From assembly GCF_055900595.2 (NCBI RefSeq), contig NZ_CM148325.1: a stretch of DNA of 64,000 bases; one strand, written 5' to 3'. The notes under the pieces are model-generated. The model saw only the letters and a list, made by a program, of their open reading frames with translations. It was not told where the DNA came from and made no database searches. The position numbers and the translations under genes were made by a program. Of this stretch, positions 7,065-63,896 are shown piece after piece. Position 1 is the stretch's first letter; every line of letters starts with the position of its first letter.

Positions 7065-7754
7065 TTACTCACTCTCTGCCGGTAATACTGGCATCCAGTC
7101 AATCGGTTTCTCGCCACGTTGTTCCAGCCACTGATTTGCCAGCACAAAATGATTGCAGCCAAAGAATCCACGATGTGCAGAAAGCGGCGATGGATGCGGC
7201 GCTTTCAGTACGTGATGGCGTTGCTTATCTATAATCGCTCCTTTCTTTTGCGCATGTGATCCCCACAACAAAAACACCACGCCTTCGCGGTGCTGGTTAA
7301 TCAGGCTGATGACTTTGTCGGTGAAGGTCTCCCAACCGAGGCTGGCGTGGGAATGCGCCTGACCTGCGCGAACCGTCAAGACGGTATTGAGCAGCAGAAC
7401 GCCCTGACGCGCCCAGCTTTCAAGATAACCATGATTAGGGCGGGTGAAGCCGGGAATAGTATTTTCGAGCTCTTTATACATATTCAGCAGTGACGGCGGT
7501 GTCGCAATGCCGGGGCGAACGGAAAATGCCAGACCATGCGCCTGTCCCGGTCCGTGATAAGGATCCTGACCGAGGATCACCACTTTAACGTCACCCAACT
7601 CTGTAAAGCGGAAGGCGTTAAAGACATCTTTTTGTGGTGGATAGATAGTGACGCCGGACTGCCGCTCGCTGGCGACGGTCTGAAGGGTATTAAGAAAATA
7701 GGGTTGCTGCTTCTCTTCAGCCAGCACATCATGCCAGGTTAATTCGTTAGCCAT
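7065..7754 (-). CDS. ung: Uracil-DNA glycosylase
   Basis: 229 aa; conserved GQDPYH active-site motif. Confidence 0.96.
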
Positions 7755-7884
7755 CTCGCTCTCCTGCGAATCTTCAATCCGCCTAGCTTAACTGCTTCTT
7801 TCTACAGAACAAAACCAAGCTCATTTTTTAGACTTTAATGAGTGCAAAAAAATGTAAATTGGTAAAATTTCACACCCGTATAAG

Positions 7885-7951
7885 TTGATGTAAAACAATA
7901 AAATCCATTTGCGAGCACACTTGATGCGTGGTTTTTATTGATTTAAATCAA
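7885..7951 (+). promoter_or_regulatory. grcA promoter region with two FNR/CRP-type boxes: TTGAT-gtaa-AACAA (7885..7898) and perfect TTGAT-ttaa-ATCAA (7938..7951)
   Basis: Sequence match to FNR consensus TTGAT-N4-ATCAA; centres 53 bp apart as described for the yfiD/grcA promoter. Confidence 0.7.
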
Positions 7952-8058
7952 AGAATCAAGGGTGTTTGAGGAGTATATATACACTCAAGCAACAATGGTT
8001 TTACCAATTGGCCGCGACAGGCTAAACAAATCAAATAATTTTGCCGGGGAGGCATCAC

Positions 8059-8442
8059 ATGATTACAGGTATCCAGATTACTAAAGCTGCTAATGACGAT
8101 CTGCTGAACTCTTTCTGGCTGCTGGACAGCGAAAAAGGCGAAGCGCGTTGCATCGTTGCGAAAGCAGGTTTTGCAGAAGACGAAGTGGTTGCAGTAAGCA
8201 AACTGGGTGACATTGAATACCGTGAAGTTCCAGTAGAAGTTAAACCAGAAGTTCGCGTTGAAGGTGGTCAGCACCTGAACGTAAACGTTCTGCGTCGTGA
8301 AACTCTGGAAGATGCAGTTAAGCATCCGGAAAAATATCCGCAGCTGACCATCCGTGTATCCGGTTATGCAGTTCGCTTTAACTCTCTGACTCCGGAACAG
8401 CAGCGCGATGTTATCGCTCGTACCTTTACTGAAAGCCTGTAA
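8059..8442 (+). CDS. grcA: Autonomous glycyl radical cofactor GrcA (YfiD)
   Basis: 127 aa; C-terminal glycyl-radical motif RVSGYAV; strong similarity to PflB C-terminus. Confidence 0.95.
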
Positions 8443-8463
8443 GGTTTAAGTAGCAAGTTACTA

Positions 8464-8495
8464 AGCGGAAGAGGGCGACCTCTTCCGCTTTTTTT
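8464..8495. terminator. Bidirectional rho-independent terminator between grcA and eamB
   Basis: GC-rich hairpin AGCGGAAGAGG-n-CCTCTTCCGCT followed by T7 run. Confidence 0.75.
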
Positions 8496-8497
8496 CA

Positions 8498-9085
8498 TTA
8501 ACAGAAAATGCGCACCGCGCAATAGACCAGCAACAACGCCAGCACGATATTTAACTGGCGACCATACTGGCGAAACAATCGCTGAAACAGGTGCCCCGCC
8601 AGCGCCCAGCACACATTGCCAAAGGTCCCAATCATTGCCAGCAAAACGCTGACGCCAATCACCCAGCTTAACGCCTGCGTTTGTGGCAGGACAAATGTCG
8701 ACAGTGCTGTAATGCCGTACAAAATAATTTTGACGTTCACAAACTGCAAAGCAAAGCTGGCCCAAAAGCTGATCGGTTTGGCCTGAAGTCCGTCTTCCTT
8801 GGTTGGACTGGTAGCGATTTTCCACGCCAGCCAGACAATATATGCTGCTCCTGCCCAACTCAAAAGGTGCACCGCTGCCGGGTCGATAACAGCCAGTGAA
8901 AATGAAATTCCTGCACACAGTAACATCACAATCAAAAATCCCAGACTCATCCCTGCCAGCACGCGGGTACTCCGACGAAATCCATGCGACGTGGCAGAGC
9001 TAAGAGCGAGTATATTGTTTGGTCCTGGCGTCAGGGCGGTAATCAGGGTGTAGGTCCAAAAAGCACTTAAAAGGGTCGGTGTCAC
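8498..9085 (-). CDS. eamB: LysE/RhtB-family cysteine/O-acetylserine exporter EamB (YfiK)
   Basis: 195 aa multi-pass hydrophobic protein; synteny. Confidence 0.85.
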   Translation of the reverse strand: MTPTLLSAFWTYTLITALTPGPNNILALSSATSHGFRRSTRVLAGMSLGFLIVMLLCAGISFSLAVIDPAAVHLLSWAGAAYIVWLAWKIATSPTKEDGLQAKPISFWASFALQFVNVKIILYGITALSTFVLPQTQALSWVIGVSVLLAMIGTFGNVCWALAGHLFQRLFRQYGRQLNIVLALLLVYCAVRIFC

Positions 9086-10120: not shown

Positions 10121-10238
10121 TGTTCATGCCGGATGCGGCGTGAACGCCTTATCCGGCCTACAAGATCGTGCAAATTCAATATATTGCATGAGCCATGTAG
10201 GCCTGATAAGCGTAGAGCATCAGGCAGTTTTGCGTTTG
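10121..10238. repeat. REP/BIME (RIP-like) element: two inverted REP palindromes flanking an AT-rich spacer
   Basis: GCCGGATGCGGCGTGAACGCCTTATCCGGCCTACA ... GTAGGCCTGATAAGCGTAGAGCATCAGGCA; near-identical copy at 41201..41318. Confidence 0.85.
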
Positions 10239-15753: not shown

Positions 15754-16709
15754 TGAAGCAACTTTGGTTTGCCATGTCATTAGTGACAGGTAGCCTGTTA
15801 TTCTCTGCTAACGCCTCGGCCACTCCCGCGTCCGGGGCGTTATTACAGCAGATGAACCTGGCCAGTCAGTCACTGAATTACGAGCTGTCATTCATCAGCA
15901 TCAATAAACAGGGTGTTGAGTCTCTGCGTTATCGACATGCACGCCTCGATAACCGTCCTCTTGCACAATTGTTGCAAATGGATGGCCCGCGCCGGGAAGT
16001 GGTACAGCGCGGCAATGAAATCAGCTACTTTGAACCGGGCCTTGAACCGTTCACGCTTAATGGCGATTACATTGTTGATTCTCTGCCATCGCTCATCTAT
16101 ACCGATTTCAAACGCCTTTCTCCTTACTACGACTTTATCTCCGTGGGACGCACGCGTATTGCTGATCGTCTTTGCGAAGTCATTCGCGTGGTGGCCCGTG
16201 ATGGCACACGCTACAGCTACATCGTGTGGATGGACACCGAATCGAAATTACCGATGCGGGTTGATCTCCTTGATCGCGATGGTGAAACGCTGGAACAATT
16301 TCGCGTGATTGCTTTTAACGTTAATCAGGATATCAGCAGCAGTATGCAGACGCTGGCGAAAGCAAATCTGCCGCCGCTGCTTTCTGTTCCTGTAGGTGAA
16401 AAAGCTAAATTCAGCTGGACGCCAACCTGGTTGCCACAGGGGTTTAGTGAAGTTTCCAGCAGCCGACGTCCGTTACCGACGATGGACAACATGCCTATCG
16501 AATCACGTCTCTATTCCGACGGATTATTCAGCTTCTCGGTAAACGTTAACCGCGCTACGCCATCGAGCACCGATCAGATGTTGCGCACCGGACGCAGAAC
16601 CGTCAGTACAAGCGTACGTGATAACGCCGAAATCACCATTGTCGGCGAACTGCCGCCGCAAACGGCGAAACGCATTGCCGAGAATATTAAGTTCGGGGCA
16701 GCGCAATGA
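15753..16709 (+). CDS. rseB: SigmaE regulatory protein RseB (periplasmic)
   Basis: 318 aa with signal peptide; operon position. Confidence 0.95.
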   Translation: MKQLWFAMSLVTGSLLFSANASATPASGALLQQMNLASQSLNYELSFISINKQGVESLRYRHARLDNRPLAQLLQMDGPRREVVQRGNEISYFEPGLEPFTLNGDYIVDSLPSLIYTDFKRLSPYYDFISVGRTRIADRLCEVIRVVARDGTRYSYIVWMDTESKLPMRVDLLDRDGETLEQFRVIAFNVNQDISSSMQTLAKANLPPLLSVPVGEKAKFSWTPTWLPQGFSEVSSSRRPLPTMDNMPIESRLYSDGLFSFSVNVNRATPSSTDQMLRTGRRTVSTSVRDNAEITIVGELPPQTAKRIAENIKFGAAQ

Positions 16710-17185
16710 TCAAAGAGTGGGCTACGGTCGTCTCCTGGCAAAACGGGCAGGCGCTGGTCAGTTGTGATGTTAAAGCCTCATGCAGCAGCTGTGCTTCCCG
16801 TGTCGGTTGCGGTAGCCGCGTGCTGAATAAACTTGGCCCACAAACCACGCATACCATTGTCGTACCCTGTGATGAACCGTTAGTACCGGGGCAAAAAGTG
16901 GAATTAGGAATCACCGAAGGCAGCCTGCTTAGCTCCGCATTACTGGTTTATATGTCGCCGTTGGTGGGATTATTCCTCATCGCTTCGTTATTTCAGCTAC
17001 TCTTTGCTTCAGATCTTGCAGCATTATGCGGTGCGATTCTCGGCGGCGTTGGTGGATTCCTGATTGCACGCAGCTACTCGCGAAAGTTTGCTGCCCGGGC
17101 AGAATGGCAACCGATCATCTTAAGCGTGGCATTGCCGCCAGGCCTTGTGCGATTTGAAACATCTTCGGAAGACGCGAGCCAGTGA
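16706..17185 (+). CDS. rseC: SigmaE regulatory protein RseC
   Basis: 159 aa membrane protein; 4-bp overlap with rseB. Confidence 0.92.
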   Translation: MIKEWATVVSWQNGQALVSCDVKASCSSCASRVGCGSRVLNKLGPQTTHTIVVPCDEPLVPGQKVELGITEGSLLSSALLVYMSPLVGLFLIASLFQLLFASDLAALCGAILGGVGGFLIARSYSRKFAARAEWQPIILSVALPPGLVRFETSSEDASQ

Positions 17186-17382
17186 TTTCACTGGCTTTGT
17201 TGCATTTTGCATAACAAATGCGAGGACGTTTCCAGATACCACAATCCATACCGTATGAACATTTCCTCGCCTCAATGTTGTAGTGTAGAATGCGGCGTTT
17301 CTATTAATACAGACGTTAAGCTCAGAACAGCGACTTCTAAAAGCCTGGTTAACCGGGCATTAAGGCACAATAATCATACTTT

Positions 17383-19182
<1,800 letters not shown>

Positions 19183-20220: not shown

Positions 20221-20414
20221 ATTTATGAGATAAATCCCCCGTGGCTAACGACATCCCCCGTCGTTGTGTATAGAATATTCCCCCGAAGTTTAAGGTTGGC
20301 ACCTCCAGGTTGCCACGGCACACGAAACAGCGTTGGTCCCCATATACCGGTAAACTGAAACTGCAGCGAAGCAGTTAGCAGAGCCATGTATATCAGGTCT
20401 GTTTCGTGTGCTGA

Positions 20415-22027
<1,613 letters not shown>

Positions 22028-24010: not shown

Positions 24011-24033
24011 AATAATACCGTTCTCTTTAAAAA

Positions 24034-24070
24034 GTAAAACCCCCGAACTGGTAAGGAACGGGGGTTTTAC
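24034..24070. terminator. Rho-independent terminator after acpS
   Basis: Hairpin AAAACCCCCG-n-CGGGGGTTTT followed by T-rich tract. Confidence 0.75.
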
Positions 24071-24429
24071 TTTACAACTTTAATTTTGTGCAGCACACGA
24101 TTCCAACAAAAATGATTATGGATCAATTTAGTTATCCTGTACAAGCAACTTGCAATCTTTAGCATAAAAACTCGAGCCTTTACGAAGAAATCGATATTGA
24201 TGAAAAGATTAACGTGACCGCTTTTTGATAAGTACATTAGAATCGGCGTCGTTATTGGATATTTTGCTGTGTTCTACGCCATGCCACTGAATTCCCCCAT
24301 TGAAACGAGTGGTGTCGTCAAAGCTCTGGTGTGGAGTGCGGCACTCGATTCCAATAACTCGCACGTTCAGTTTTGGGGAGATGTAAGGGCTAATCTGAAC
24401 GGCTGCATTCCTTGTTTAAGGAAAAACGA

Positions 24430-34082: not shown

Positions 34083-34268
34083 AGTGGCTCATTCACCGAC
34101 TTATGTCAGCCCCTTCGGGACGTGCTACATAAAATTCGAATGACGCACAACAAGGTGCCTGCCGTCCAACTTCTGATATCAGCTTAGCTATATCAACCCT
34201 CGGGCGAAACGTCGAGTTAGGCACCGCCTTATTCCATAACAAAGCCGGGTTATTCCCGGCTTTGTTGT
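34083..34268 (+). ncRNA. glmY: Small RNA GlmY (controls GlmZ/glmS via RapZ)
   Basis: Sequence recognised (AGUGGCUCAUUCACCGACUUAUGUCAGCCCCUUCGGGAC...); ends in terminator AAAGCCGGG-n-CCCGGCUUUGUUGU; lies between purL and glrK. Confidence 0.85.
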
Positions 34269-39587: not shown

Positions 39588-39615
39588 ATGGTCTTCCTTT
39601 TTTTGCATCTTAATT

Positions 39616-39636
39616 GATGTATCTCAAATGCATCTT
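39616..39636 (-). promoter_or_regulatory. NsrR operator in the hmp promoter (AAGATGCATTTGAGATACATC palindrome)
   Basis: Inverted repeat matching the NsrR 11-1-11 consensus, about 30 bp upstream of hmp start. Confidence 0.75.
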
Positions 39637-63655: not shown

Positions 63656-63896
63656 TTTAACCGTCCTGTTTCGTGTTGCATCTGCGTTGACTGTACATAC
63701 TCACTCCGGTCACTTACTTATGTAAGCTCCCGGAGATTCGTAAGTTTGTCAACTTGCTGAAACCCGAAACAGTTAGGTTAAAGATAACAAGATATTAGAA
63801 TCAGGCCGGGGCGTCTCGCGCTCCGTAAACACGGTCGTACATCCAGCCGGTAGCCTGGTTCCTTGCATTGAGTGATGTACGGAGTTTATAGAGCAA

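Follow-up and report, generated by a model that had tools for sequence, protein, structure and literature searches.

The closest described system is the yfiD (grcA) promoter of Escherichia coli K-12, which was studied by Green et al. 1998, Marshall et al. 2001, and Wyborn et al. 2002, as cited in later papers. Two FNR sites, located at -40.5 and -93.5, were described for this promoter (Green, Baldwin & Richardson 1998, as cited in later papers), and a negative role of the upstream site is already mentioned in the title of that study, as quoted in later papers. Similarly, a later paper states, on the basis of earlier work, that FNR bound at the upstream site of yfiD suppresses activation. Deletion of the upstream site resulted in more activity under complete anaerobiosis, and the activity of the wild-type promoter was higher under microaerobic conditions (Marshall et al. 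2001, as summarized in PMC10208419). In addition, the yfiD transcript increased 5- to 12-fold upon a shift from an anaerobic to a micro-aerobic regime, and the regulators of yfiD are annotated as ArcA(+), FNR(+/-), and PdhR(-), the repression by PdhR being documented as relieved by pyruvate (PMC3181329). The GrcA protein substitutes for the oxygen-cleaved C-terminus of pyruvate formate-lyase, a damage that arises microaerobically (PMC8683613). The grcA promoter with two FNR sites is hence already known in detail from K-12, and metabolic engineers already employ it as a part that responds to oxygen (PMC10208419).

Comparable arrangements occur at the CRP-dependent promoter acsP2, at synthetic tandem-CRP promoters displaying repression at a distance, and at pioABC of Rhodopseudomonas palustris, with FixK boxes at -44.5 and -137.5. 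As in the case of grcA, these promoters combine a proximal class II site with an upstream site of the same type, located on the same face of the helix or close to it, and the protein bound upstream modulates the one bound downstream, although the regulators and distances differ from those of grcA. Furthermore, the C-terminal domain of the alpha subunit of RNA polymerase was reported to be uninvolved in the suppression at yfiD, unlike in the CRP case.

The whole stretch of DNA analyzed (64 kb, hereafter the window) contained the E. coli ung-grcA locus, with the neighboring genes tapT, trxC, yfiF, ung, grcA, eamB, yfiE, and srmB in the same order as in K-12 (Table 1). The GrcA protein encoded was identical to that of K-12 at 126 of 127 positions, the exception being position 38 (F in the window, Y in K-12), and it scored 233.9 bits against the TIGR04365 equivalog model for the autonomous glycyl radical cofactor GrcA (cutoff 170). 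The ung-grcA intergenic region was matched in 5425 of the 5426 complete E. coli genomes, once in each genome and on the chromosome. Compared with K-12, the 304-bp gap contained ten substitutions (7815, 7818, 7836, 7839, 7879, 7915, 7918, 7927, 7955, and 8024), three of which (7915, 7918, and 7927) were located in the spacer between the FNR boxes. None of them affected either box, the -10 hexamer, the TATATATA run, the start site, or the block from +9 to +25, so that these elements, as well as the box spacing and the ung-grcA-eamB-yfiE synteny, were the same as those of the K-12 yfiD promoter. At position 7955 (-30), the window carried an A and K-12 a T, the A being the Enterobacteriaceae consensus base. 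Similarly, three E. coli versions that were among the most divergent ones (92.8-95.4% identity) had both boxes, the -10 hexamer, and the sequence up to about +38 unchanged, the substitutions having piled up upstream of FNR II and between the boxes. The intergenic sequence (7755-8058) represents an uncommon lineage, as it was found with at least 99% identity in only 11 of the 5425 complete E. coli genomes. A scan of the whole window with Rfam revealed no RNA family in the ung-grcA gap, so that these positions are not claimed by any known RNA element. Elsewhere in the window, the matches reaching the gathering score were all expected, namely ES036 sRNA (10162-10204), AsrC (antisense to rseC; 16670-17501), the rncO leader (20285-20499), the ohsC antitoxin RNA (24031-24107), GlmY sRNA (34083-34230), and the iscRS stability element (63785-63894).

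Table 1. Features of the ung-grcA locus, with positions in the window.
Feature	Position	Strand	Remarks
ung	7065-7754	-	ORF divergent from grcA
FNR II, box TTGATGTAAAACAA	7885..7898	+	lower affinity; centre 7891.5 = -93.5; down-regulating according to the K-12 literature
FNR I, perfect box TTGATTTAAATCAA	7938..7951	+	centre 7944.5 = -40.5; class II activating site, at the position expected for a -35 element
Putative -10 hexamer TATATA	7974..7979	+	within the TATATATA run (7974-7981); 22 nt past the end of FNR I
Predicted ArcA site, three direct repeats	7975..8006	+	-10 to +22; Park 2013 supplement, under an ArcA ChIP peak
grcA transcription start (+1)	7985	+	derived from K-12 literature placements; 74-nt 5' leader (7985-8058)
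PdhR-like palindrome CAATGGTTTTACCAATT	7993..8009	+	+9 to +25; candidate operator, position presumed
Shine-Dalgarno sequence GGGGAGG	8046..8052	+	6 nt before the ATG; presumed from position
grcA (yfiD) CDS, 127 aa	8059..8442	+	ATG at 8059; RefSeq annotation of an identical locus; TIGR04365
grcA intrinsic terminator	8463..8490	+	stem of 12 bp, then a T run

A sequence-only reading of the window had described a perfect FNR box and an imperfect one, 53 bp apart, and had recognized in them the classic two-site FNR architecture of the yfiD/grcA promoter. This description was borne out: both boxes were present in the ung-grcA gap, the centre of FNR II was located exactly 53 bp upstream of that of FNR I, and the sequences were identical to those of the K-12 sites at -93.5 and -40.5. 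FNR II contained a single mismatch, T to A, in its right half-site. Three of the half-sites thus read TTGAT/ATCAA and the fourth AACAA, and a spacing of N4 was found in both boxes, as is typical of FNR; a reading of the boxes as CRP sites is ruled out by half-site sequence and spacing, the CRP site consisting of GTGA half-sites separated by N6. These box sequences, their spacing, their identity to K-12, and their conservation are direct observations. The perfect consensus TTGATNNNNATCAA occurred only once in the window, as FNR I, compared with an expected number of 0.07, and at least once in seven of 100 shuffles. Five matches with one mismatch were found versus 2.13 expected, so that FNR II taken alone is unremarkable. 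Upon shuffling of the intergenic region, a perfect box appeared in 214 of 200,000 sequences, whereas none of the 200,000 contained two boxes with no more than one mismatch each at a spacing of exactly 53 bp. The locus thus combined the features of a tandem promoter of the yfiD/grcA type, namely a box approximately 40.5-41.5 bp before the deduced start, a second box at -93.5, half-sites of the FNR type, and an orthologous position.

Other sequence features were found around the boxes. An extra TTGAT between them (7921-7925) was discarded as a candidate, as it was not conserved in the family comparison and variable within E. coli. The central GTAA of FNR II and its flanks (TAAG before and TAAAATCC after; 7880-7906) were conserved among the Enterobacteriaceae beyond what FNR recognition alone needs, which may reflect an overlapping site of another protein or mere relatedness. 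Furthermore, a T-tract was present just upstream of FNR I (7930-7937), which reads GGTTTTTA in the window and TTTTTTGTTGT in Vibrionaceae; it was highly conserved in both families, with slightly different offsets, and might act as a bend or be contacted by the RNA polymerase alpha subunit.

Published K-12 data could be projected onto the window, as subtracting a window position from 2724508 gives the NC_000913.3 coordinate; coordinates of the older U00096.2 version are 1978 lower here, and the offset was verified on both 14-mers. The weight-matrix sites of Myers 2013 (PMC3688515, Table S6) include TTGATTTAAATCAA at 2714579 (score of 17.25) and TTGTTTTACATCAA at 2714632 (score of 13.87), which are 53 bp apart and map exactly to window positions 7938-7951 and 7885-7898. 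In other tables of the same study, a single FNR ChIP-seq peak is given at 2714607 (Table S5), corresponding to approximately window position 7923, between the boxes, as well as a sigma-70 ChIP-seq peak at 2714546 (Table S2), corresponding to window position 7984. Moreover, yfiD is marked 'Activated' in the comparison of the wild type with an fnr deletion strain (Table S8), and it is assigned to Category 1, directly activated by FNR, its site being placed at -40.5 with reference to Green et al. 1998. A weight-matrix scan, FNR ChIP-seq data, and FNR dependence, which the sequence-only reading had named as ways to check its proposal, were thus available for K-12, and they all agreed with it. The occupancy by FNR, the dependence on fnr, the position of the start, and the negative effect of the upstream site were all established in published K-12 work and presumably apply to the present strain alike.

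Two published placements, namely of FNR I at -40.5 (PMC3688515) and of the ArcA site at -10/+22 (PMC3798270), converge on a start site at 7985, matching the positions of about -40 and -93 on which the sequence-only reading had relied. The +1 position deduced in this way is a T, which is an uncommon initiating base, so that the true start may be located one or two bases away. The assignment of TATATA as -10 hexamer follows from its position relative to this start site and is likewise tentative. A scan of the region 7700-8560 for sigma-70 consensus promoters revealed none, which does not constitute counter-evidence because a class II FNR promoter lacks a -35 element. An ACA triplet was present at 8056-8058, directly before the grcA AUG. 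MazF reportedly cleaves the yfiD mRNA at such an ACA site, yielding a leaderless transcript, as Vesper et al. are said to have described in 2011. Processing of a 5' end at the yfiD promoter has also been mentioned in the literature.

Downstream of the start site, two further regulators may act. Concerning ArcA, Park 2013 (PMC3798270) lists a site TGGTAAAACCATTGTTGCTTGAGTGTATATAT at 2714524-2714555, positioned at -10/+22, with its effect marked '-'. This sequence was the reverse complement of window positions 7975-8006 and was invariant among the divergent E. coli sampled. Older work, as described in a later paper, had ArcA activating yfiD by displacing FNR or disrupting FNR binding. Both the site and the direction of the action of ArcA at the grcA promoter thus differ between older and newer reports. 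Concerning PdhR, the palindrome CAATGGTTTTACCAATT had two mismatches to AATTGGTNNNACCAATT (12 of 14 specified bases) and overlapped with the published ArcA site. The operator consensus of PdhR is presumably AATTGGT-N3-ACCAATT. Two AATTGGTNNNACCAATT-type matches, with at most two mismatches to this consensus, were present in the window versus 0.21 expected. Among the loci listed, the block from +9 to +25 was the strongest conserved block past the start site in Enterobacteriaceae and was absent in Vibrionaceae. On these grounds, positions 7993-8009 probably represent the operator for the pyruvate-relieved repression by PdhR, its exact position being deduced from the sequence. A possible second PdhR half-site (AATTGGT, 7857-7863) was rejected, as it had no matching right arm and was situated in a region that was not conserved.

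Taken together, the region 7885-7951 almost certainly belongs to the grcA (yfiD) promoter native to E. coli, which is FNR-dependent, is of class II, and contains two FNR sites. When oxygen falls, FNR would assemble its [4Fe-4S] cluster, dimerize, and bind the perfect box at -40.5, where it would replace the -35 element and recruit RNA polymerase to the TATATA -10 hexamer, with a start at 7985. The box at -93.5 would be weaker because it is one base off the consensus; it is situated on the same DNA face, five helical turns farther upstream, and would be filled only when active FNR is abundant, i.e., under full anaerobiosis. FNR bound there would dampen the activation by the downstream dimer. 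Transcription would be maximal at intermediate (microaerobic) oxygen levels, because the upstream site would fill and dampen only under full anaerobiosis, and this peak would coincide with the cleavage of pyruvate formate-lyase by oxygen, when the GrcA spare part is needed. In addition, ArcA and the pyruvate-sensing repressor PdhR would contribute redox and pyruvate signals through sites at approximately -10 to +25. The lower affinity of the upstream box appears to be a selected feature. The sequence-only reading had interpreted the two boxes as fitting a glycyl-radical spare part that is induced anaerobically and by acid. Its two-site interpretation is supported, and the spare-part role of GrcA as well as its induction by acid and under microaerobic conditions are documented in the literature; what it had omitted, and what the K-12 literature provides, is that the upstream site down-regulates instead of acting as a second activator and that expression is maximal under microaerobic conditions.

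To compare the promoter across families, one genome per species was scanned for the grcA N-terminal coding pattern, which gave at least 120 loci, an arbitrary sample, and the 400 bp upstream of each locus were searched. Among the loci listed, 66 species of Enterobacteriaceae and 23 of Vibrionaceae had enough upstream DNA. A box corresponding to FNR I was conserved in every family examined. The boxes of the best pair were exactly 53 bp apart in 60 of the 66 Enterobacteriaceae listed (52 bp in five and 43 bp in one) and in 22 of the 23 Vibrionaceae listed (49 bp in one). For these listed loci, the identity of the box cores to the window was 0.98 in Enterobacteriaceae and 0.89 in Vibrionaceae, compared with 0.56 and 0.32, respectively, for the 39-bp spacer, and 0.42 and 0.30, respectively, for the 40 bp upstream of FNR II. 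FNR I and the ATG were separated by 103 to 114 bp (with one case of 152 bp) in the Enterobacteriaceae listed and by 82 to 95 bp in the Vibrionaceae listed; therefore, indels do occur nearby, yet they are excluded between the boxes. Concerning box strength, the upstream box was weaker than, equal to, or stronger than the downstream one in 47, 19, and 0 species of Enterobacteriaceae and in 13, 9, and 0 species of Vibrionaceae, respectively (88 species with a pair at 52 or 53 bp, among the loci listed, one species of Vibrionaceae having no such pair), and the AACAA defect of the upstream box was kept in a large majority of the Enterobacteriaceae species listed. Furthermore, a -10 block of high information started 22 nt after FNR I in the consensus of both families. 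The ung gene was located 1.2-3.3 kb from grcA in the Vibrionaceae listed, versus a direct divergent pairing in Enterobacteriaceae and Pasteurellaceae, which indicates that the box pair travels with grcA and not with ung. The DNA between ung and grcA in Vibrionaceae (e.g., L012, L033, and L039) presumably contains one or more genes. Chance cannot explain the conservation of the pair across two families. Part of the conservation within the Enterobacteriaceae is due to shared ancestry, the comparison with the Vibrionaceae being the more independent one. These data lend independent support to the two-site reading, and also to the view that selection acts on relative affinity and helical phasing.

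Alternative roles of the upstream box have to be considered against this background. Some CRP-dependent promoters are activated from a site near -93 on the same helical face. The box at -93.5 could likewise be a second activating site, with two FNR dimers jointly raising anaerobic expression in the manner of class I CRP near -92.5, and the words 'classic two-site architecture' of the sequence-only reading are compatible with such a role. Conserved spacing is predicted by any cooperative model and hence by this one too. The K-12 experiments point in the opposite direction, as upstream-bound FNR suppresses activation and deletion of the upstream site raises the anaerobic activity, and as yfiD rises instead of falling when anaerobic cultures receive little oxygen (PMC3181329). 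Moreover, the complete lack of a stronger upstream box among the 88 species listed with a pair at 52 or 53 bp fits a site that is filled last. Joint activation is thus very improbable.

Equally, the upstream box might serve the divergent ung gene or be mainly a site of ArcA, CRP, or some other regulator, in which case its distance to the grcA box would be incidental. FNR II and the ung start codon are indeed 137.5 bp apart, within an intergenic region common to both genes, the GTAA centre and flanks of the box are conserved in Enterobacteriaceae beyond the need of FNR alone, and earlier work on ArcA is described as showing that it disrupts FNR binding at yfiD. A role towards ung is contradicted by the Vibrionaceae listed, in which the pair is still 53 bp apart and keeps a constant distance to the -10 block of grcA although ung is far away, and no ung entry appears in the passages of Myers 2013 consulted (PMC3688515). 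Likewise, a role for another regulator is at odds with the TTGAT of both boxes, which is of the FNR type and not the GTGA of CRP, and with the published ArcA site, which covers -10/+22 and not FNR II. This explanation is slightly less credible still than joint activation. A functionless near-match that arose by chance would fit the modest enrichment of one-mismatch matches in the window (five versus 2.13 expected), but the 53-bp pair was never recovered in 200,000 shuffles, it was kept across two families despite a near-random spacer, and it was invariant in divergent E. coli of which the spacer contained several SNPs. FNR II is also located under the published ChIP peak and is included in the published site list (PMC3688515). 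Chance can hence be dismissed for practical purposes, and a lower-affinity FNR site that dampens the activation from -40.5 is the preferred interpretation of the upstream box.

The grcA genes of Pasteurellaceae (Haemophilus, Rodentibacter, Aggregatibacter, and others) are orthologous and have, as in E. coli, FNR-type boxes upstream; they were divergent from ung in 21 of the 22 listed loci with enough upstream DNA. A pair of boxes was found in 16 of the 25 species listed. However, unlike in E. coli, most of these pairs had a spacing of 42-44 bp and the better box was the upstream one, and a conserved TTTGAA-N3-TTCAAA palindrome was situated between a TGATAAAAT extended -10 element and the downstream box. 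This layout of two boxes plus palindrome was seen, approximately 130 to 45 bp upstream of grcA, in L003, L010, L051, L104, L117, and other loci. No PdhR-like block was evident in the Pasteurellaceae grcA promoters listed.

Elsewhere in the window, a one-mismatch FNR match, TTGAGATACATCAA, was found in the hmp promoter (39614-39627, - strand), 6 bp ahead of an upstream ATG that is in frame (39608) and approximately 27 bp before the Hmp start proper. This box directly follows a TATAAG hexamer resembling a -10 element and overlaps the start region. It presumably corresponds to the known site at which FNR represses hmp, the flavohaemoglobin gene, a regulatory role that Poole (in 1996) and Cruz-Ramos (in 2002) are reported to have described. 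A single FNR site at the -10 element and start would thus lead to repression at hmp, in contrast to the activation at grcA. The remaining one-mismatch matches (15891 and 46919) were located inside long ORFs and look like chance occurrences.

For annotation purposes, the region 7885-7951 forms the core of the regulation at the grcA promoter and requires no new explanation. The promoter represents a textbook case of a single transcription factor producing a response that is not monotonic, being switched on at low oxygen and turned down at zero oxygen, by means of two sites of different affinity. In the literature searched, no description of the conservation of the 53-bp spacing was found, and a 2007 comparative study scores the presence of FNR sites only. 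The combination of a strong box at -40.5 and a weaker box 53 bp upstream may well be an old, selected module that arose before Enterobacteriaceae and Vibrionaceae diverged; in that case, it would have been rewired in Pasteurellaceae, to a pair 42-44 bp apart with the strong box upstream and an additional palindrome. The conservation of this geometry while the spacer was randomized supports the model of affinity and phasing, and it makes the promoters of Vibrionaceae and Pasteurellaceae natural test cases. If the module is indeed that old, the microaerobic 'band-pass' expression of GrcA would be a conserved trait and not a peculiarity of K-12.
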